Shown: piece by piece, positions 5,750-18,656 of the stretch
How positions within the stretch are numbered: the stretch's first letter is position 1
Layout: every line of letters begins with the position of its first letter
Origin: Vacuolonema iberomarrocanum LEGE 07170
GTDB taxonomy: Bacteria; Cyanobacteriota; Cyanobacteriia; Elainellales; Elainellaceae
DNA: 28,524 nt
Assembly (NCBI RefSeq): GCF_015207365.1
Contig: NZ_JADEXA010000076.1
Span: 1-28,524, forward strand
Reading direction: 5' to 3'
Notes under the pieces: generated by a model
The model's input: only the letters and a program-made list of their open reading frames with translations
The model's database searches: none
What the model was told of the DNA's origin: nothing
Made by a program: the position numbers and the translations under genes

Positions 5750-5776
5750 TCCCAATTCTATGCAAGCCAAAATCAC

Positions 5777-5821
5777 ATCATTGTTTAAAATCTTTGCGGC
5801 GCAAGGGTTTTAAACAATGAT
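5777..5821 (+). terminator. 45-nt palindromic stem-loop between convergent genes (member of a repeat family, see 28273..28321)
   Basis: ATCATTGTTTAAAATCTTTGC-GGC-GCAAGGGTTTTAAACAATGAT. It is fully paired on the + strand if two G-U pairs are allowed. It starts 28 nt after the malic enzyme stop. Confidence 0.55.
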
Positions 5822-5863
5822 TTGGAATGGGTTCTTGGCGAATTGATATAAGTCGGTTGTTGG

Positions 5864-6121
5864 TCAGGGTTGCTGCTCTTCGTCCGGCAAGCGATCTTCC
5901 TCCTGTCGCTGCACATATAGACTGGTGCCCGGAATCCGCCCTGACCAATAGAGATAGAGGAAGTAAACACTTGCCCCGACCTGAATGGGCAAAAGTATTC
6001 CCAAACTCTTCCACAAAAAATTCACATCCAGCGTATGAAAAGCATGGGTGTACAGCGCACTGCCACCAATGATCAAAAGCGCCAGCATCACCCGTCTGGG
6101 TTTACGAAGAAAAGAAGCCAC
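5864..6121 (-). CDS. small two-helix membrane protein, hypothetical
   Basis: 85-aa ORF with two hydrophobic stretches (VMLALLIIGGSALY, ILLPIQVGASVYFLYLYW) and an acidic tail. The start at 6121 is GTG; an in-frame ATG is at 6088. Confidence 0.45.
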   Translation of the reverse strand: MASFLRKPRRVMLALLIIGGSALYTHAFHTLDVNFLWKSLGILLPIQVGASVYFLYLYWSGRIPGTSLYVQRQEEDRLPDEEQQP

Positions 6122-6153
6122 AGAACCTCACCAGAACGGCCTACGTTATCTCT

Positions 6154-6264
6154 CTGAGTACAGGACAAAAACCAGATAATTCTTGATTTTGGGTGGCACG
6201 GGTATTGCCTGCGCCACCCAAAATCAAGAATTTTAGCAAGGTTTTATTTTTGTCCTGTACTTAG
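6154..6264. mobile_element. 111-bp MITE-like element with 18-bp terminal inverted repeats and 9-bp target-site duplication
   Basis: TIRs are CTGAGTACAGGACAAAAA (6154-6171) and TTTTTGTCCTGTACTTAG (6247-6264), matching at 17/18 positions. The direct repeat GTTATCTCT flanks the element at 6145-6153 and 6265-6273. An internal perfect 20-bp inverted repeat is AATTCTTGATTTTGGGTGGC (6178-6197) / GCCACCCAAAATCAAGAATT (6213-6232). Confidence 0.65.
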
Positions 6265-6734
6265 GTTATCTCTATTGCATGAACTCAACTAGGGTTTAAG
6301 GCGATCGAGCGACTATACGCAACAAACGCAGCAGCAATAGCAACAAGAAACTAATTGTAAATATTCATATTAATTTTTATATCTTTTATCTTGACTATTT
6401 AGTAATTATCTTGAGTCTCTTGGTCTAAGATTTGACGCCTATTAAATAATTAAGATTCCGTTGTAGGGCAAAGGCTTAAATGATTAGATCAAGTAAACCC
6501 AAGAGCGCTCGCTTGTCTAGGTCTCCTTATGTCATTGATTTTGCATAAATTTCAGTTGACATAACGAAAAAAGGGTGCAAGCCGAAAGATTTTTTTTAGA
6601 TTCTTTAGACATCATTTCTGATTACAATACCCTGTGCTACGATCAGTCCAGATTTAGTTTCGGTTGTGTAATTCGTTTTTCAGAAACGTCTCTCCGAACT
6701 TAACTCTCTACAATATGTTTTCGGAGAATCTCTA

Positions 6735-7040
6735 ATGTCGATTTACGTTGGCAACTTGTCCTACAGTGTCACACAAGATGACCTGACCGAGACGTTTGCC
6801 GAATATGGTACGGTCAAGCGTGTGCAACTTCCCACCGATCGCGAAACCGGTCGGATGCGTGGTTTTGCCTTTGTCGAAATGGCAACGGAAGAAGAGGAAA
6901 CAGCGGCGATTGACGCGCTCGATGGAGCAGAGTGGATGGGACGTGACCTCAAGGTCAACAAAGCCCGCCCTCGTGAAGATCGACGTTCCTCTGGCGGCGG
7001 TGGTTGGCAGGGTAGAGGAGGTTCTTCTCGGCGGTTCTAA
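6735..7040 (+). CDS. rbp: RRM-type RNA-binding protein with Gly-rich C-terminus (cyanobacterial Rbp class)
   Basis: RNP2 IYVGNL and RNP1 RGFAFVEM, with a C-terminal SSGGGGWQGRGGSS tail. ATG is preceded by GGAGA. Confidence 0.95.
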   Translation: MSIYVGNLSYSVTQDDLTETFAEYGTVKRVQLPTDRETGRMRGFAFVEMATEEEETAAIDALDGAEWMGRDLKVNKARPREDRRSSGGGGWQGRGGSSRRF

Positions 7041-7158
7041 GGCAATCCACACTCGGCTCTAGCCGAGCACGTTTATAGTCAAAGGGGGCGAACATTTCTT
7101 CTCAGTAAGTGATTTTCGCCTCACCTCTTCGATCAATTCAAATATATAAGGAGACAAC

Positions 7159-7347
7159 ATGGCTCAAGTCATTCCTGGTGAAGGTGAAGGAATTGAGTCA
7201 ACGTTGCGCCGCTTTAAGCGAGAAGTTTCTAAGGCGGGGATTTTTCCTGACATGAGAAAAAATCGCCATTTTGAGACTCCCATTGAAAAGCGTAAGCGTA
7301 AGGCGATCGCTAAGCAAAAGCAGCGCAAAAGAAGGTTTCGCAACTAG
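7159..7347 (+). CDS. rpsU: 30S ribosomal protein S21
   Basis: 62-aa basic protein: ..[33 protein letters not shown]... AAGGAG lies 6 nt upstream of the ATG. The rbp-rpsU linkage is a known cyanobacterial arrangement. Confidence 0.95.
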
Positions 7348-7349
7348 TG

Positions 7350-7378
7350 AAGTGCTTGGCTAATTCAGCCAAGCACTT
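7350..7378 (+). terminator. stem-loop directly after the rpsU stop
   Basis: AAGTGCTTGGCT-aattc-AGCCAAGCACTT, a 12-bp perfect stem. The following tract is only weakly T-rich. Confidence 0.55.
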
Positions 7379-7564
7379 TAGCATTCAGGCGATTTCTAAA
7401 GGCATCCCAAAGCATCACAAGTCGGAACATCGTAGTTCAACTATGTGTTATCTCCACCGTTTTGGAGACGCCTAAGGATATCGTCTTTGATTCTTGTAAA
7501 ACTTGCTTGACCGTAAATCGCTTCCCATTTCTCCCTCCAACCCATTACTCCTACCTAAAACCTG

Positions 7565-7864
7565 ATGAATACCAAAGAGCTTTGTAGCCGTTATGCAGCC
7601 GGTCAAAGGGATTTTAGAAACCTGAATCTGATTGCAGCAAACTTGAGAAACCTCAATCTAAGTGGTGCAAACTTCAGTGGATCTAACTTGACCAAAGCGA
7701 ATCTCACCCGAACCAATCTAAGCCGTGCTAATTTGACTGGGGCTGTATTAGCAGGAGCAAATCTGACCGAAACAAACTTGCTTCAAGCTAATCTAACCAA
7801 CGCAGATTTGAGCGAAACGAATCTGGCCGATGCTCGTACTAAAGGTGTTCGGCAAGCAGGTTAG
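7565..7864 (+). CDS. pentapeptide repeat protein
   Basis: Continuous A(D/N)LxX repeats: NLSGANFSGSNLTKANLTRTNLSRANLTGAVLAGANLTETNLLQANLTNADLSETNL. Confidence 0.85.
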   Translation: MNTKELCSRYAAGQRDFRNLNLIAANLRNLNLSGANFSGSNLTKANLTRTNLSRANLTGAVLAGANLTETNLLQANLTNADLSETNLADARTKGVRQAG

Positions 7865-7873
7865 TTAGGCTGA

Positions 7874-8353
7874 CTACAAATCAAAGCGATAGCGGATGGC
7901 TCCTGTTACCGGATCGTTTGTCGTCTCCACGTACCCCAAGCGCTCCGCTTCATAGAGCAATTCCCGTAACTGCGCTGCGTCTAACTCTGTAGAAAGTGCC
8001 GCCTGCGCAGGTGAAAGAATCCCTCCATATTCATGAGCAGCCCGAAGTAATTTCTGCATGGGGCTGCTCTCTTGTGTTGGGCGTGGAGCTTCTACAACTC
8101 GAGACTGAGCAATCACTGGCATGATCACAGGGTTCATGCCGCCTTGTAACCGCAAAAGCTCCTGATTCCGCTGATCAACCATTCCAGGAATTAAGAATAG
8201 GTCAATGAGCTGCCCAAAGCCCACAATACCAAACGTAAAAAGATAAATAACCCCGCTCAGAATTCGTCCAGTGTACAGCCGATGAATGCCACAAACTCCA
8301 AAGATACTTAAAGCCCAAAGGAGATAAGCCGTCGGATAATTGACTCTCTGCAT
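7874..8353 (-). CDS. TM2 domain-containing membrane protein
   Basis: TM2-like hairpin: YLLWALSIFGVCGIHRLYTGRILSGVIYLFTFGIVGFGQLIDLFLIP. The ORF-track start at 8365 is GTG; the first ATG is at 8353. Confidence 0.75.
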   Translation of the reverse strand: MQRVNYPTAYLLWALSIFGVCGIHRLYTGRILSGVIYLFTFGIVGFGQLIDLFLIPGMVDQRNQELLRLQGGMNPVIMPVIAQSRVVEAPRPTQESSPMQKLLRAAHEYGGILSPAQAALSTELDAAQLRELLYEAERLGYVETTNDPVTGAIRYRFDL

Positions 8354-8504
8354 GTTAAATTGCACCGTTAAACGTAAATTCTATCCTATTCAATTTATTC
8401 AACATTTGGGCGATATTTGAGCAGAGAATTACAATTTTTCAATTTGTAAATATCTCGCTAGGCCGTACAGCAAGGGGCTTTTATATTCACCCAGCTGACC
8501 TAGC

Positions 8505-8589
8505 CTATAGCGATCTCAAATGATATGTGAAATCGGATGTGAAAGGTGGGCACAGCCCACCTTTCACATCCGATTTCGGATTGCTATAG
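8505..8589. repeat. 85-bp nested palindromic element with a 23-bp perfect stem
   Basis: GAAATCGGATGTGAAAGGTGGGC (8529-8551) - aca - GCCCACCTTTCACATCCGATTTC (8555-8577). Outer arms are CTATAGCGATC (8505-8515) and GATTGCTATAG (8579-8589), matching at 10/11 positions. Confidence 0.8.
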
Positions 8590-8640
8590 AAGGATATAAA
8601 CAATCTGCATAGAGCCCTAAAAGACGACAATAGCAGGAAC

Positions 8641-8669
8641 AAAAAAAGGTTGGTAGAGATCTACCAACC
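8641..8669 (-). terminator. rho-independent terminator for the 8718..9374 gene
   Basis: GGTTGGTAG-agat-CTACCAACC (8648-8669), followed on the minus strand by T7 (A7 at 8641-8647 on +). It lies 49 nt past the stop. Confidence 0.65.
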
Positions 8670-8717
8670 TCACAGAAACAGGTAAAAGCTTCTGCTTAGA
8701 TGCACAGAGCTATCTAG

Positions 8718-9374
8718 TTAGATGCCAGCTCTATCCGATGCAGGCAATCCGACAATATCGTCGAACGCAGCAGCCAATGCACAGCTTGATAGTGGAATCG
8801 TGAATAGTAAACCAACACCTAGCAGTAGAGCCCCACCTACATTGATCAGAGCTAGCAAAATAAGAAAGATGAAAAAGGAAAACCAGTTGCGTGAAATGAT
8901 CTTACGACTGGACTCCATCGCTTCCCAAAAGTCAAAATTCCGTCCGACGACAAATGCTACTGAAAAGCTGTAGGCAACAGCTAGAAAAATACCTGGAATG
9001 ATCAGCAAAATCAATCCGAGTAATACAAAAATTCCAACCAGTAGACTTGTGAGAAAAATAGGTAAAAAACTATTAAACCCACGGAAGAAGTCGCCAAACT
9101 CTGTGGATTGTCGCTTGATAATTTTGAATGCAACGATTAAGAAGCCTGCCGATAAAGCTGGGCTGATGACATTTACAACAGCATTCACCAACGGCAACAA
9201 GCGCTCGGGCATAACAGCGGGAATGAAGGAGAACAGCAACAGGATGACAGTAAAGCCAATAAACCCACCGAGGTTTTGCTGCATGATCTCCCAGCCCCGC
9301 TGGATATATTCCCCAATTTTGACTTCATAGCCTTGCTGTAGAATTGAATCTACGCTTTTTTCACCGGAATACAT
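8718..9374 (-). CDS. multi-pass integral membrane protein, hypothetical
   Basis: 218 aa with about 5-6 hydrophobic segments. ATG is preceded by GGAG. Family not recognised with confidence. Confidence 0.7.
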   Translation of the reverse strand: MYSGEKSVDSILQQGYEVKIGEYIQRGWEIMQQNLGGFIGFTVILLLFSFIPAVMPERLLPLVNAVVNVISPALSAGFLIVAFKIIKRQSTEFGDFFRGFNSFLPIFLTSLLVGIFVLLGLILLIIPGIFLAVAYSFSVAFVVGRNFDFWEAMESSRKIISRNWFSFFIFLILLALINVGGALLLGVGLLFTIPLSSCALAAAFDDIVGLPASDRAGI

Positions 9375-13214: not shown

Positions 13215-13547
13215 GGCAGAGGCGATCGCAGGGCTAAATCACACGGTATTTCCTGCGAACGTCAGCATTTTCGGCGATCGCACCGATTCAGGCAAGTTCC
13301 CAAAGGGAGGATTGTGTTTGGAGGTGTTCGTTCGTAGGCTGGGCATGCCCAACGCTCTCAATCTCTGCAACGCTTCAGAGGCTCAGAGCTGCGACTTCTT
13401 GACCTCTCGCAAAAGATAGTGTGCTTCGCTTGGGAAAGAAGTCGCAGATCTTTCTCAAGCGAAGACCCCGATTTTTGGCTGTCGGTGAGATAGAACAGAG
13501 AAATAATCATCACTCCCCAGTTTTTGTCCGCTTTGGAGGCTGTGTTT

Positions 13548-14033
13548 ATGAGCGACCTGATTGACATTGAGAAATCTATTACTCGTTTGAAGCGTCAGCT
13601 ATCGGACAAAAGAAACACTCTGGTAACTATCGCACCAGAAGAGAAAGAACGGATTCGACAGCAAATCGAAGATCTACACGAAGAGATTCAGAGATTTGAG
13701 CAGGAAAAATGGGAGATTTTAGCAGAGCAGTCAGAATCCCTGGATTTTCCTGAGCCGGAAGCCGAAACAGCGGTGGTCGAAATTGTGGAAGCGGTCGCCC
13801 AACTTGAGACACAGCCTGTCGCATATCCCGAGGAAGTGATGCAAATCCTGTGGGAAATCCGCGACAAGCTCAACGAACCGGGGCCGACCGCTGCCGGAAA
13901 GCTCAAAGGCATTCTATCCAGCTTTCCACCGTTTGTCGGCATCACGTATGAAGCTGAACTGGATACCGAGAACTTTGCCCGCCAATACTTTCCGACGTTT
14001 ACAAAACTGATTAAGGGGGCGGCAAAAAAGTAA
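13548..14033 (+). CDS. hypothetical 161-aa protein: charged coiled-coil N-half, hydrophobic/aromatic Lys-tailed C-end; candidate partner of the downstream STAND NTPase
   Basis: ATG at 13548 is preceded by GGAGG (13535-13539). The ORF-track start at 13524 is TTG. The stop is 14 nt before the NB-ARC gene ATG on the same strand. No family recognised. Confidence 0.6.
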   Translation: MSDLIDIEKSITRLKRQLSDKRNTLVTIAPEEKERIRQQIEDLHEEIQRFEQEKWEILAEQSESLDFPEPEAETAVVEIVEAVAQLETQPVAYPEEVMQILWEIRDKLNEPGPTAAGKLKGILSSFPPFVGITYEAELDTENFARQYFPTFTKLIKGAAKK

Positions 14034-14047
14034 ATGCCCCTGGTTCG

Positions 14048-17000
14048 ATGGGGTCGGAACAGGGGCTGAACTATGGGCTGAATGCACTGGGAACGACGCT
14101 GTTTGTTGGACGGCGATCGGAGCTGGATGTCTTGCATCAGAAGCTGATAGGGAGCGGGGGCGATACTCAACAGGTTGCCATTGCTGCCGCAGCGGGGATG
14201 GGTGGCGTTGGCAAAACGGCCTTGGCACGCGCTTATGTGCGAGAACAGGCAACGGGCTATCCCGGTGGCATTTGGTGGCTTCGGGTGCGCGAGGTAGATC
14301 TGGTGTCAGAAATTTTGGCGGCGGCAGCATTTTTTGGCTGGGAGGTGCCCGACTTACCCATTGATGACCCAGAGCGAAAGCAAGTTCAGCAAGTGGCCTG
14401 GTGCTGGCAGCAGTGGCAAGATGCTGCACCGGGAAATCGATTGCTGGTGCTGGATGATGTACCGGACTACAGCACAATACAACCCTTCTTGCCGGGAGAT
14501 GCTTCCTTTCGGGTGTTGCTGACCTCAAGAAGGAGATTCAGTCAACCTGTAGATCAAATAGATCTGAGAGTAATGAAGCGAGCAGAAGCATTCCGCACCT
14601 TCCGTCGATATGTGAATGATGATGAGCGAATTCGAGTAGACGTAATAACGGCAAAAGCTATTCTGAACTGGCTAGGCTATTTACCACTGGGTATCGAGCT
14701 AATAGGAAAATATCTAGAGGCTCGCCCCAGTGTATCACTAGTAATTCTGTGGCAACGACTCCAAGAAAAGCGTTTGGATGCAAAAGCTCTGAAGGAGCTA
14801 CCTGAGGAACAGGCTTACGAATATGATATTCGGGCGGCTTTGGAACTTAGTTGGCAAGAGCTTTCGCCTTTGGCGCAACAGGTAGCAGGACTTCTCTCCA
14901 TCTTTGCTCTAGCACCAATTCAACAAGACTGGATCCTGTATGCCCTTAAGGATTTTAGACAGCCTCTAAACAAGGCATTCGCCAAATTAGTCTCAACGTT
15001 CAATCCTTTTCGGAAGCGAGGTACTCCTAATCTCATACTTAATATCACTTTAGAAGAGTTGGAAAATGTCCTGGACAAGGAACTAGTACAAGGTTCAATG
15101 GTGCAACGCTTGGAACCAGGTCGCTATCAATTGCATCAACTGGTGCAAGAATTCTTAGCGGATCACCTAAAAACTAAACTAGCTATCCACACCAAGGTCT
15201 TGCAACTAGGTGTTGTAAATGCTGTGGCTCAACAAGCTAAAATCATCCCTTCCTCCCCCACTTTAGCTGACTTGACTTATCTGCAAGATTTTATTCCACA
15301 CGCCACTACCATTGCCCACAAACTTATCCATTTATCACCCAATAATGCTGGATGGTTATTGACAAGTTTAGCAGCATTATCACAGCTACAAAACCGTTGG
15401 GACGAGGCTGAACACTGGCACAAGAAGTGGCTTAGCATGGCTGAGTTTCGTTTTGGCTCTAGTCATCCCGAAGTAGCTAATAGCTTAGATAATTTAGCTC
15501 TTTTTTATCAGACAGTAGGACGCTACGATGAAGCAGAATCCCTATATAAAAGAGCTCTTAATATCTACCAGAAATATTTAAGATCCAATAGTTCGGACAT
15601 TACTAGCAAACTTAATAATCTAGCATTACTTTACAACAACCTAGCATTACTTTATTGGAGGATGGAGCGATATGATGAGGCAGAATTCCTTTATCATGAA
15701 TCACTCGCTCTTAGGGAGGGTCAGATAGAAATAGATCATGACAATATTATTACTACCTTTAGTAATCTAGCAGTTCTTTACCGAGCAATGAAACGCTACG
15801 AAGAGTCAGAAAAACTGTGTAAAGAAGTGCTACTAGAAAGAGAACAACATCTTGGATCTGATCATCCCGCGGTTGCCACTAGTTTAAATAATCTAGCATT
15901 GTTATACGAAAAGATGGAGCGCTATGAGGAGGCTGAATCATTATACAAGCGAGCTTTCACTATTCAGAATCATCATATGGGGGATGATCATCCTGAAACT
16001 GCCAATATTCTATATAATTTAGCAAACCTTTATTACGAAATGAAGCACTATGAGAAGGCGGAGCAACTGTTTTGTCAAGTACTTCAAATTTATGAAACTC
16101 AATTTGGTGACGCTTATCCCCTGGTTGAAGAGTTATTATCGCCATTAATACTAGCTTGCTTAGAAAATCAGCAATATGATAGTGCTGAAGCTTTCTTATT
16201 AAAATTGATCCAGCTTAGAAGCGATAAATTAGGTAACAGTCATTCTGAAACATTAGCTACTCGTAGGTCTTTAGCAGCCTTGTACCGCTCAGTCAAGCGT
16301 TACAGGGAATCTGAAGCCTTATATTTAGATTTACTTCAGATTTACAATATTCAACTTGATGCTGATCCTTTCAACGCTGCGACGATCCTCAATGATTTGT
16401 CTGAGCTCTACATAGTGATGGAACGCTATTCTGAAGCAGAACATCTCTTAAAAAAACTGCTTCAGATTCGAGAGAGTCAATTAGGTAACGAGCATCTTGA
16501 TATAGCTGATTGTCTTAATAAGTTAGGTTATCTGTATACTTTGATTGGATATTATGAAGAAGCAGAGTCCTTGTATCTAAGAGTACTTCAGATTAGAAAT
16601 GCCTCTCTGGGAAGTACTCATCAGCTTACTGCTGACAGCTCGAATGACCTGGCATATCTTTATAAATCAATGGGACGTTATTCTGAAGCAGAGTTTTTGT
16701 ATCAGGAGGCGCTTAGGGTTTCAGAAAGCAATTTTGGGGCTGATAGTCTCGAAATTATTCTAAATTTGAATAACTTAGCAATGCTTTTGGAATCGATGGA
16801 ACGATATGAGAAAGCAAAAACACTAACTGAAAGAATACTTTATATTCAAACATTGCACTTGAGTGGTGATCACTCTGAGACTATAGATACTCTCTTTGAT
16901 TTGGCAAGCCTTCACAAATCAATGCAGCAATATAATGAAGCAGAATCATTGCTGCTGCAAGCTGTTCAGCTCTTAGAGAAAAATCTGGATTTTAGTCACC

Positions 17001-17260
17001 CTGATTTTGTCACAGCTCTAAACAATTTGGCGGTGTTATATGAATTAACGCAACGTTACGAAGAATCTGAAAAATTTTATTTACGTGCTCTCGATATTGA
17101 TTTGACTAGTTCACCTCAAGATTGTCCTAACACTAACTCTATCCATGAAAGGTTGAGTCGGATGATACAGACTGCACTAGAAGCAGGGGAAGCAGAACAA
17201 TTGTCTGATAATTCGACCACTCAGGAAGTGTTGCGGCAGCTAAGAGAGCATTCAGATTAA
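14048..17260 (+). CDS. STAND NTPase: NB-ARC domain with about 14 kinesin-light-chain-type TPR repeats and no N-terminal effector domain
   Basis: FVGRRSEL, Walker A AAGMGGVGKTALA (about aa 50), Walker B RLLVLDDV, LLTSRRR, and GLPL-like GYLPLGIELIG. These are followed by 42-aa repeats with recurring xRY(D/E/S)EAExLY ... LNNLA(L/V)LY. Confidence 0.9.
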   Translation: MGSEQGLNYGLNALGTTLFVGRRSELDVLHQKLIGSGGDTQQVAIAAAAGMGGVGKTALARAYVREQATGYPGGIWWLRVREVDLVSEILAAAAFFGWEVPDLPIDDPERKQVQQVAWCWQQWQDAAPGNRLLVLDDVPDYSTIQPFLPGDASFRVLLTSRRRFSQPVDQIDLRVMKRAEAFRTFRRYVNDDERIRVDVITAKAILNWLGYLPLGIELIGKYLEARPSVSLVILWQRLQEKRLDAKALKELPEEQAYEYDIRAALELSWQELSPLAQQVAGLLSIFALAPIQQDWILYALKDFRQPLNKAFAKLVSTFNPFRKRGTPNLILNITLEELENVLDKELVQGSMVQRLEPGRYQLHQLVQEFLADHLKTKLAIHTKVLQLGVVNAVAQQAKIIPSSPTLADLTYLQDFIPHATTIAHKLIHLSPNNAGWLLTSLAALSQLQNRWDEAEHWHKKWLSMAEFRFGSSHPEVANSLDNLALFYQTVGRYDEAESLYKRALNIYQKYLRSNSSDITSKLNNLALLYNNLALLYWRMERYDEAEFLYHESLALREGQIEIDHDNIITTFSNLAVLYRAMKRYEESEKLCKEVLLEREQHLGSDHPAVATSLNNLALLYEKMERYEEAESLYKRAFTIQNHHMGDDHPETANILYNLANLYYEMKHYEKAEQLFCQVLQIYETQFGDAYPLVEELLSPLILACLENQQYDSAEAFLLKLIQLRSDKLGNSHSETLATRRSLAALYRSVKRYRESEALYLDLLQIYNIQLDADPFNAATILNDLSELYIVMERYSEAEHLLKKLLQIRESQLGNEHLDIADCLNKLGYLYTLIGYYEEAESLYLRVLQIRNASLGSTHQLTADSSNDLAYLYKSMGRYSEAEFLYQEALRVSESNFGADSLEIILNLNNLAMLLESMERYEKAKTLTERILYIQTLHLSGDHSETIDTLFDLASLHKSMQQYNEAESLLLQAVQLLEKNLDFSHPDFVTALNNLAVLYELTQRYEESEKFYLRALDIDLTSSPQDCPNTNSIHERLSRMIQTALEAGEAEQLSDNSTTQEVLRQLREHSD
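15614..15655 (+). repeat. in-frame tandem 21-nt duplication inside a TPR unit (NNLALLY-NNLALLY)
   Basis: AATAATCTAGCATTACTTTAC / AACAACCTAGCATTACTTTAT, read directly. Confidence 0.85.
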
Positions 17261-17530
17261 ATGAGATTTTTCAGATGGAATGAGCAGATAGAGGTTTGTG
17301 AGCATGAAATGAGAAGCATTTGAGCAGAAAAGCTGGATAGGGAAGTGAATATACCCCTGCAAGAGTAAGGTTGTTATCCAATCAATGCTTGCTCGCCCTA
17401 CGGTTCAAGATGATTTGTATGTTACGGCGGATCTTCTTGCAGATTTCGTAGGTGTGGGCACTTTTGATCGTCTGGTGCGGGCGATCGACTTGGGCGAATG
17501 GTGCCTGCGAATGAATTGTGAGCTGGTGTG

Positions 17531-18175
17531 AGCCAATCTGTTGAAATGGGTTGATGCCTCAGGGCACCTACCCGCCCGCGAATGAATGGCGGGCTAATGG
17601 GAGGAAACCCATTGAAATGGGTTCAGCCCCAGACACCAATGCGGGCAGAGAACCCAGTCCACGACAGTGGACTTAATGCGGTAGCCCGCCATTCATTCGC
17701 GGGCGATTCCCACGGATGACAGCGGGCGAATAGGAGCAAAGCCATTGAAATAGGTCGATTGTTCGAGGCACACCCCCGCCCGCGAATGAAATTGCGGGCT
17801 AATGGGAGAAAACCCATTTCAATGGGTTCATGCTGCAAACACCAATGCTGTCAGAAGCCCAGTCCACGACAGTGGACTTGATGCGGTAGCCCGCCATTGA
17901 TTCGCGGGCGATTCTCACGGATGGCGGCGGGCTAGTGTGAGCAAAGCCATTGAAATAGGTCGATTGTTCGAGGCACACCCCCGCCCGCGAATGAAATTGC
18001 GGGCTAATGGGAGAAAACCCATTGAAATGGGTTCATGCTGCAAACACCAACGCTGGCAGAGACCCAGTCCACGGCAGTGGACTTAATGCGGTAGCCCGCC
18101 ATTCATTCGCGGGCGATCTCGACGGATGGTAGCAGGCGATGGAAGCAAATCCATTAAAACGGGTTCATCCCAGCA
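17531..18175. repeat. tandem array (about 3.1 copies, period 204-205 bp) of REPIN-like units, each with two inverted REP hairpins and two further hairpins
   Basis: Forward REP GCCCGCGAATGAA(T/ATT)GGCGGGCTA at 17574, 17778 and 17983. Inverted REP (G)TAGCCCGCCATT(C/G)ATTCGCGGGC at 17682, 17887 and 18092. Inter-REP hairpins include AACCCAT-tgaa-ATGGGTT (17606-17623) and AGTCCAC-gaca-GTGGACT (17656-17673). The flanking copies are degenerate. Confidence 0.8.
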
Positions 18176-18191
18176 AGCATTCATCGGTCGA

Positions 18192-18656
18192 TTAATGGGG
18201 TTTACGCGGAATGTTGAAGAATTGAGGTTCCAGCCCACGAATTAGGGTTTGGGTGTCATGGTGGTGTTTTTGGTTTTCCACATAGGCGATCGCATCTGGC
18301 AATTGTTTCCGGCCTAATGAGAACACCCCATATTCTCGTTGCCATGCGAAGGTTTGGTCTGGGAAGGTTTTATTCAGATGGCGGGAGCTGCTGCCTTTGA
18401 TGCGTTTGACGAATTGAGCGATCGCCAGTTTGGGCGGAATGGACACAATCAGGTGAACATGATCCTCAATCCCCCCAATTGCATGAAACCAACAATCCAA
18501 GGATTTCGCTTTGGCCTGCATGTATTGGTAGAGTTCAGGGCGGATGGGGTCGGTGATTAGGGGAGTGCGATCGCCCGTCGCCCACACCAGATGATAGTAG
18601 GTCTGCCAAGTTGACATTACGCGTGCTTCCTGTGGTTCTTTCTGCAAGATGCCCAT
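18192..18656 (-). CDS. IS200/IS605-family Y1 (HUH) transposase, RAYT-like (REP-associated tyrosine transposase)
   Basis: YHLVWATGDRTP, HUH motif in DHVHLIVS, Tyr region WQREYGVFS, and YVENQKHHH. No tnpB partner. The 3' end sits 17 nt from the REP array. Alternative ATG at 18617. Confidence 0.85.
   Translation of the reverse strand: MGILQKEPQEARVMSTWQTYYHLVWATGDRTPLITDPIRPELYQYMQAKAKSLDCWFHAIGGIEDHVHLIVSIPPKLAIAQFVKRIKGSSSRHLNKTFPDQTFAWQREYGVFSLGRKQLPDAIAYVENQKHHHDTQTLIRGLEPQFFNIPRKPH

Follow-up and report, generated by a model that had tools for sequence, protein, structure and literature searches.

The DNA analysed here is a 28,524-nucleotide (nt) stretch (the window) from the filamentous cyanobacterium Vacuolonema iberomarrocanum, which was placed in the Oculatellales in our analysis and is placed in the Elainellales in the GTDB lineage. 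It carries a small open reading frame (ORF) followed closely by a gene for a STAND NTPase, and our subject is how the two are joined in translation. The first frame, ORF1 (13548–14033, + strand), encodes 161 amino acids (aa) from an ATG that is preceded at 8 nt by a Shine–Dalgarno-like GGAGG visible in the sequence (13535–13539, +). A TTG at 13524 offers an alternative start (169 aa), and the family alignment favours the ATG at 13548. The second frame, the STAND ORF (14048–17260, +), encodes 1070 aa, and its ATG follows the ORF1 stop by 14 nt. Sequence and comparison indicate that the two frames form one transcription unit, because no promoter-like or terminator-like site was found between them. 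The original prediction had described the same pair, with the same coordinates and the same GGAGG, and the stretches of the small protein that it quoted are correct. It read the pair as two separately translated genes, an effector-less STAND NTPase and a small partner. Our analysis suggests instead that ORF1 and the STAND ORF are probably a single gene, whose two parts are brought together by a programmed −1 ribosomal frameshift that is conserved among homologues.

The annotated STAND protein displays the features of an AP-ATPase (NB-ARC) STAND, having a Walker A motif (GMGGVGKT), a Walker B motif (LLVLDDV) and C-terminal repeats; the other two NB-ARC core motifs named in the original prediction, LLTSRRR and GYLPLGIELIG, are also present in the translation. 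The NB-ARC NTPase domain spans 14123–14854 (+; STAND residues 26–269; PF00931, E 7.4e-11) and scores 42.2 bits against a gathering cut-off of 23.5. The P-loop GMGGVGKT is encoded at nt 14195–14218 (+; residues 50–57), and because it starts at residue 50, the annotated protein is left without an N-terminal domain. A low-GC TPR array of the kinesin-light-chain type (TPR_10/TPR_12), presumably the sensor, was located at 15473–17230 (+) with Pfam and NCBIfam, Pfam resolving it into 12 TPR_10 and 9 TPR_12 stretches.

Three-frame translation of the junctions revealed a −1 reading at the end of ORF1. The frame closes with GCA AAA AAG TAA, in which a slippery heptamer, A_AAA_AAG (14024–14030, +), is in frame with ORF1, phased as GC[A AAA AAG], so that it has the X_XXY_YYZ phasing with the 0 frame expected of a −1 frameshift cassette. 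The 0-frame stop TAA (14031–14033, +) lies directly 3′ of the heptamer. After a 5-nt spacer, which is within the 5–9 nt typical of such 3′ structures, a stimulatory hairpin is predicted at 14036–14066 (+; −21.4 kcal/mol, z −2.96), with an outer stem of GCCCCUG (14036–14042) paired with CAGGGGC (14060–14066) and an inner stem of 14044–14049 paired with 14053–14058. The −1 frame (KKVNAPGSMGSEQGL...; 14024–17260, +) is open from the heptamer to the STAND stop, a run of 1078 codons, and is closed upstream by a TAA at 14012–14014, three codons before the heptamer. The predicted trans-frame product therefore comprises 159 + 1078 = 1237 aa, with VNAPGSMGSEQGLNYGLNALGTTLFVGR as its junction peptide. 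The original prediction described the two ORFs correctly and overlooked both the closing A_AAA_AAG of the small ORF and the −1 frame left open after it. A search of Rfam matched no known frameshift element and no other RNA family.

To place this junction in a wider context, 80 genomic loci encoding a relative of ORF1 were fetched, and cassette counts were made over 81 loci. Of the 81, 62 combine a −1 ORF of at least 150 aa with an in-frame heptamer, which is A_AAA_AAG in 49 and A_AAA_AAA in 13; they come from Nostocales, Oscillatoriales, Chroococcales, Leptolyngbya-like and Pseudanabaena-like genomes. The heptamer lies 0–4 codons before the stop in the cassette loci and 13 codons before it in one, L055; in 50 of the 62 the stop follows 0 or 1 codon past the heptamer. 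The codon that precedes the two lysine codons ends in A in all 62 loci (GCA, CTA, TTA, ATA, GTA, CCA or AAA) while encoding six amino acids (Ala, Leu, Ile, Val, Pro or Lys), and in the 49 AAG-type loci the lysine codons are always AAA-AAG. Conservation of the heptamer site thus exceeds the demands of the protein sequence. Three small ORFs that stand alone, with no STAND downstream (L058, L059 and L066), end in GCG AAA AGG or GCG AAA AAG and have no heptamer. In 13 Microcoleus loci, a 104-nt "intergenic" gap encodes a conserved −1-frame peptide (...FYQLYDIPSELGSKNFVGRDEE), the last 20 codons of which differ solely by synonymous third-position changes. A complete cassette was also seen in a genome bin labelled Candidatus Sericytochromatia, a non-photosynthetic sister group of cyanobacteria (L047), which may reflect either erroneous binning or a wider distribution.

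The start codons of the downstream frames bear on whether the STAND proteins are translated on their own. In 29 of 31 NB-ARC-type loci, the first ATG of the STAND frame lies past a conserved FxGR motif, and 24 of the 31 have no ATG, GTG or TTG before this motif. In most nSTAND4-type loci the first ATG is far past the P-loop, typically at codons 132–275 compared with about codon 89 for the P-loop itself. To judge from their sequences, most homologous STANDs cannot yield an intact product by independent initiation, because no start codon precedes their conserved N-terminal motifs; no alternative start exists in Microcoleus or Microcystis. The locus most closely related to that of the window (ORF1 82% identical) has the same cassette and no methionine between the slip site and the P-loop; the ATG at 14048 in the window therefore looks incidental. 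These observations weigh on the simplest alternative, in which two separate, co-transcribed genes are translated independently, the STAND from the ATG at 14048 and perhaps by termination–reinitiation, with the 161-aa protein acting in trans. The ATG that lies 14 nt past the ORF1 stop, the conserved gene order and the verdict of gene callers, which annotate two genes, all speak for such an arrangement, and translation as two genes is possible for the window alone, given that ATG. Yet the ATG is buried in the predicted hairpin without a Shine–Dalgarno motif, is absent from the closest relative and has no counterpart before the conserved N-terminal motifs of most homologues. Moreover, two-gene translation gives no account of the heptamer, of the fixed third position in the codon before it, of the heptamer's disappearance from stand-alone ORFs or of the in-frame fusions produced by one extra A (described below). 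We therefore consider the two-gene explanation unlikely. Taken together, the in-frame heptamer, the 3′ hairpin, the open −1 frame and the startless homologues argue that the small ORF supplies the STAND with its N-terminal domain, linked to it by a −1 frameshift, so that the separately translated genes and the effector-less STAND of the original prediction are both probably wrong.

Natural variants of the A-run provide a further view of the junction. One extra A gives an in-frame fusion with the predicted junction, as in L001 (A10) compared with L002 (A9) and as in L045 and L050 (A7). A subfamily linked to nSTAND4 partners (L002–L009, L020–L022, L029, L054 and L069, from Nostoc, Anabaena, Stigonema and others) carries an A9 run containing A_AAA_AAA, placed 3–4 codons before the stop, and a strong 3′ hairpin is mostly absent there; transcriptional slippage or variation in run length may operate in this subfamily instead of ribosomal slippage. 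Extended to the whole family, such an explanation would have the same fusion protein arise by RNA polymerase slippage on the A-run or by a DNA-level change in its length (phase variation). It draws on these Nostocales loci, on the existence of in-frame A10 and A7 variants and on Thermus dnaX, where A9 runs support transcriptional slippage (PMC3711429). The window and 48 other loci, by contrast, have only six A residues followed by G, which is short for polymerase slippage, and it is ribosomal frameshifting that is marked by such exact X_XXY_YYZ phasing, by a stop next to the heptamer and by a 3′ hairpin at a specific position. Transcriptional slippage is accordingly plausible for the Nostocales A9 loci and unlikely for the A6G type, and as a general explanation we regard it as quite unlikely.

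Homopolymer runs are also prone to insertions and deletions, which raises the prospect that a once-fused N-domain–STAND gene has simply been broken by an indel or a sequencing error. A few loci are indeed truncated relics (L011, L033, L042 and L068), and a few keep a relic heptamer after deletion of the STAND. For the family at large, decay or mis-assembly is very improbable: 62 independent assemblies, drawn from many genera, share a frame break at one and the same codon, neither ORF is disrupted, and the region past the break is under purifying selection. The fate of one relic can be followed on the contig that carries L033, where L081 (6001–7221) encodes a 406-aa protein with a TRADD-N and an ORF1-type domain and adjoins a CyanoTRADDas_TM gene. 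The gene keeps the heptamer (GCAAAAAAGTCCTAG), and its −1 ORF ends after 10 codons; here the STAND seems to have been deleted and the slip site left behind.

Folding energies were calculated along 28 non-redundant AAG-type loci. The 40-nt window starting right after the heptamer has a mean of −10.3 kcal/mol, compared with about −6 kcal/mol at other offsets from −160 to +240, and the dip occurs only directly 3′ of the heptamer (paired Wilcoxon p 2.4e-4; mean shuffle z −1.87, p 7e-7). Compared with control segments from the downstream ORFs, the difference is also significant (p 0.001). The stem sequences differ between lineages; close relatives of the window keep the stem, with the outermost G-C replaced by U-A. 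A CCYCYGAU-like string recurs in the 5′ arms of the hairpins in L016, L019, L032, L037, L047, L055, L075, L078 and L085 and in the window (14036–14042). The 3′ arms of these hairpins are GGAGG-like, and the −1 frame there encodes recurring (P/S)SDP or APGS peptides, so that there seems to be mutual constraint between the RNA structure and the linker peptide. Across the family, then, comparative sequence analysis bears out the heptamer, the open −1 frame, the predicted hairpin, their conservation, the missing starts and the natural in-frame fusions.

The protein encoded by ORF1 belongs to a family of 77 clusters at 90% identity, 160–170 aa in length, recovered from 5.8 billion proteins; all clusters for which a source names an organism are cyanobacterial. 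An exhaustive profile search of 1.84 billion representatives returned 315 with E<1e-3. The N-terminal half of the family is variable and coiled-coil, and the C-terminal half is strongly conserved (AAAKLKGxISxFPPFVxxxYEAELDTExxxRxYFPTF). An AlphaFold2 (AF2) model of ORF1 is all-helical, with seven helices (predicted local distance difference test (pLDDT) 83.9, predicted template modelling score (pTM) 0.70), and the most conserved motif falls in its sole low-confidence loop. The original prediction could assign the small protein to no family, and this holds: comparison with Pfam, NCBIfam, PADLOC and PHROGs gave no family above threshold, only sub-threshold coiled-coil noise (SMC, Rad50, SbcC). 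Structure and profile searches found no relative either, Foldseek giving no match with E below 0.1 in the PDB or the BFVD viral structure library and a profile search of PDB sequences returning nothing below E 0.03. Two described domains were considered and set aside. The effector-associated domain (EAD) EAD9 (PF19962) scored 13.6 bits, below its gathering cut-off of 25; weak matches to it by the N-terminal half occur in 10 of 24 family members (best E 5e-4), which is suggestive but below threshold, and the domain is therefore not filed as EAD9. EACC1, which forms the constant part of a two-gene system, has a transmembrane (TM) helix as its defining feature and is found mainly in actinobacteria, and the ORF1 protein is soluble and all-helical.

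The company that the ORF1-type domain keeps supports the association with conflict systems proposed in the original prediction, because it occurs with TIR/SEFIR, TRADD-N, NACHT, Roc-COR and VMAP (vWA-MoxR-associated protein). It is C-terminal in TIR/SEFIR, TRADD-N, SNF2-helicase, STAS-LRR-Roc-COR and NACHT proteins, and in more distant family members it forms a true in-frame N-terminal fusion to nSTAND1, AAA_16-TPR and TM-TPR proteins; two more N-terminal fusions, to TIR-like and periplasmic-binding-like sequences, were read by eye from protein sequences. A TRADD-N fusion, P0087, ends in ...LAKKS with the relic heptamer of L033 and adjoins the CyanoTRADDas_TM gene. The ORF1-type domain thus conforms to the EAD principle, in which a small non-enzymatic domain stands at the termini of core components and effectors. 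Its domain partners favour an adaptor over an effector. The small-domain gene is present as two or more paralogues per genome in several cases (L014/L078, L010/L063, L064/L067 and L069/L072), and in at least one of these the downstream genes differ, the partner being NB-ARC-TPR for L014 and TM-TPR for L078; this multi-copy pattern resembles that reported for EADs. Within the 28.5-kb window, tblastn detected no second copy of the ORF1 domain, and the role of a second copy would fall to the short and long products of one gene.

The linkage of the small ORF to large downstream genes also extends beyond the window, a large same-strand ORF following directly in 62/81 loci. By type, the partners are NB-ARC/AAA_16 plus TPR (33), nSTAND4/nSTAND3-type (12), NACHT (6) and others (11); the last group includes four loci with a TM segment followed by TPR_1 repeats and seven more, among them WD40 (L049) and VMAP (L077 and L079) proteins. 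The downstream module changes from locus to locus behind an unvarying N-module and slip cassette. With a small gene placed immediately before an NLR-like gene whose N-terminus is short, the layout brings to mind amyloid-signalling pairs of the BASS/Bell or HET-S/NWD2 type, in which a small effector and an NLR have a common prion-forming motif; Dyrka et al. reportedly described this layout in 2020. Against this, the ORF1 protein and the STAND N-terminus give no local alignment at E <= 100, and in many of the homologous STANDs the stretch ahead of the P-loop is too short to hold a motif. Amyloid signalling of this kind is hardly credible here.

On the basis of these observations, we propose the following mechanism for the recoded gene. 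Ribosomes would start at the ATG at 13548, and most would terminate at the TAA at 14031, releasing a free 161-aa helical protein as the non-shifted product. A fraction would slip back by 1 nt on A_AAA_AAG (14024–14030), aided by the hairpin 5 nt downstream and probably by the adjacent stop codon, and would go on to make the 1237-aa protein, consisting of the helical N-domain, a short linker, NB-ARC and the TPR array. Domain architecture suggests that the N-domain is a non-enzymatic adaptor or oligomerization module of cyanobacterial conflict systems, occupying, as it appears to, the architectural position of Aravind's EADs. The TPR array might sense a ligand, upon which NB-ARC oligomerization would cluster the N-domains. 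By analogy with EADs, with Death domains and with the way in which OrfA acts on OrfAB in IS3-family elements, the free short form may co-assemble with the long form or may buffer or restrain it, and the efficiency of frameshifting would then set the short-to-long ratio. In a bolder version, the frameshift itself would be the regulatory or arming step: infection or stress would alter tRNA-Lys availability or elongation and hence the ratio of adaptor to fusion, the short form would polymerize with the activated long form, by way of their common helical domain, into an ASC/CARD-like prokaryotic 'inflammasome' derived from a single recoded gene, and the N-module plus cassette would be a portable 'recoding adaptor' on interchangeable sensors (NB-ARC, NACHT, nSTAND4, TM-TPR, WD40 and VMAP). 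We regard this version as rather doubtful.

Several points weigh against the reading as a recoded gene and its proposed function. The whole case for frameshifting is computational. No Shine–Dalgarno-like stimulator is found at the canonical 10–14 nt upstream of the heptamer in the window, where the nearest candidate, AAGGGGG (14013–14019), is only 4 nt upstream; such a 5′ stimulator is not common to every known −1 frameshift cassette. The heptamer by itself is not enriched in the window (7 copies compared with 6.6 expected), and the case therefore rests on comparative evidence. Among the NB-ARC-type loci, moreover, only the window (at 14048) and one other have an ATG that falls after the slip site and before FxGR, so that independent initiation in the window is possible and both routes could operate. 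If the organism has a tRNA-Lys(CUU), it would lower slippage on AAG. RNAalifold, applied to 15 hairpin regions, did not arrive at a consensus structure, since the hairpins neither align in register nor agree in sequence. The positional folding-energy statistics described above were used in its place, and support for the hairpin is thus statistical rather than classical covariation. Finally, the adaptor function, for which the evidence is domain architecture alone, is considerably less certain than the recoding.

The genes that surround the locus are housekeeping genes (HisA, SET, PrsW, an MR/MLE-family enzyme and FeoB/FeoC). Searching PADLOC-DB v2 matched no system model for either protein and no Avs or NLR model; the only match was to a generic TPR model (E 1.6e-15). 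A defence-island setting, which the original prediction had favoured, is thus unsupported. The FxSxx-COOH TPR protein model NF040586 scored 294.8 bits, just under its cut-off of 300 and driven by the TPR array, and no radical-SAM gene is nearby. The compositionally foreign island noted in the original prediction holds in part: GC content falls to 0.37–0.40 only across the TPR half (about 15000–17000), whereas the flanks, ORF1 and the NB-ARC part all have about 0.52. The TPR-encoding sensor half may have a history different from that of the N-terminal half, such as module exchange, or the low GC may alternatively be a composition effect of the repeats. The mobile-DNA relics reported next to the pair are present, in the form of an IS200-like Y1 transposase gene (18192–18656, −) adjoining a palindromic repeat array with a 205-nt period (about 17500–18170). 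Within this array, a 41-nt palindrome-containing unit occurs seven times, and the arrangement with the Y1 transposase is REP/RAYT-like. In L082, the locus most closely related to that of the window, a Y1_Tnp gene (8307–8732, −) likewise lies directly 3′ of the STAND, and the neighbourhood is therefore conserved. Elsewhere in the window, positions 5776–7874 form a region of about 2 kb with a GC content of 0.43–0.46 and no ORF of at least 110 aa on either strand.

If the frameshift is real, bacterial NLR-like immune sensors would exhibit genetic recoding of a new kind. A whole class of "effector-less" cyanobacterial STAND, TPR, WD40 and VMAP genes would turn out to be mis-annotated, many single genes having been taken for two, with their N-terminal domain residing in an upstream "hypothetical" ORF. 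One gene would supply both sensor-fused and free copies of the adaptor, a new solution to the coupling of effector and adaptor in multicellular bacteria. A slip cassette placed before at least six unrelated downstream modules would constitute a natural system for modular recoding, and would provide a simple, testable frameshift signal for cyanobacterial ribosomes.

Among known recoded genes, the locus resembles those of insertion sequences of the IS3 family (IS911 and IS150), which also use a heptamer of the A_AAA_AAG type and a 3′ structure. As with OrfA and OrfAB of that family, the short 0-frame product ends just past the slip site and the long one is a trans-frame fusion. OrfA and OrfAB coincide in their N-terminal part, a coiled coil included, and the long form is modulated by the short one. 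Unlike in IS3 elements, what follows the slip site here is a STAND NTPase or some other sensor in place of a transposase, the locus has no inverted repeats and sits among housekeeping genes, and the downstream module is exchanged between loci. Frameshifting by −1 in OrfA/OrfAB has been reviewed (PMC5009743). Programmed frameshifting is rare in non-mobile chromosomal genes of bacteria, the known cases including dnaX, copA and csoS2 (PMC5009743). Escherichia coli dnaX is also similar, with an identical A_AAA_AAG, a hairpin about 5–6 nt downstream and two products (tau and gamma) that have a common N-terminus and are made in a set ratio (PMC3711429). It differs in that its shifted product is the short one, whereas here it is the long one, and in that a Shine–Dalgarno-like element 10 nt upstream contributes in dnaX, whereas none is found at that spacing here.

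At the level of protein architecture, close counterparts are the EAD-coupled STAND, VMAP and TRADD-N systems of multicellular bacteria (Kaur et al. 2020, PMC7159879; Kaur et al. 2021, PMC8195603), in which a small non-enzymatic helical domain stands at the termini of STAND, VMAP, TIR and TRADD-N proteins of filamentous cyanobacteria. TRADD-N genes next to AP-ATPase-TPR genes were noted in the later of these studies (PMC8195603), and frameshifting is mentioned in neither (PMC7159879 and PMC8195603). Unlike in the EAD systems, the ORF1 domain matches no described EAD above threshold, and the interacting copies, which come from two genes there, would both come here from one recoded gene. No prior report of recoding in STAND or NLR-like immune genes was found in the literature searched, including the GeneTack survey (PMC3711429) and a 2016 review of recoding (PMC5009743). 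The trans-frame product, with an N-terminal helical domain, NB-ARC and C-terminal repeats, is also organized like plant CNLs and bacterial Avs and bNACHT proteins; in contrast to these, it matches CC, CARD or Death domains neither in sequence nor in fold and has no PADLOC Avs match, its sensor is a TPR array, and its N-domain is attached by recoding. Both −1 frameshifting and the protein classes involved are known; what is new, as far as we can tell, is their combination into a portable N-module and slip cassette placed before interchangeable NLR-like sensors.

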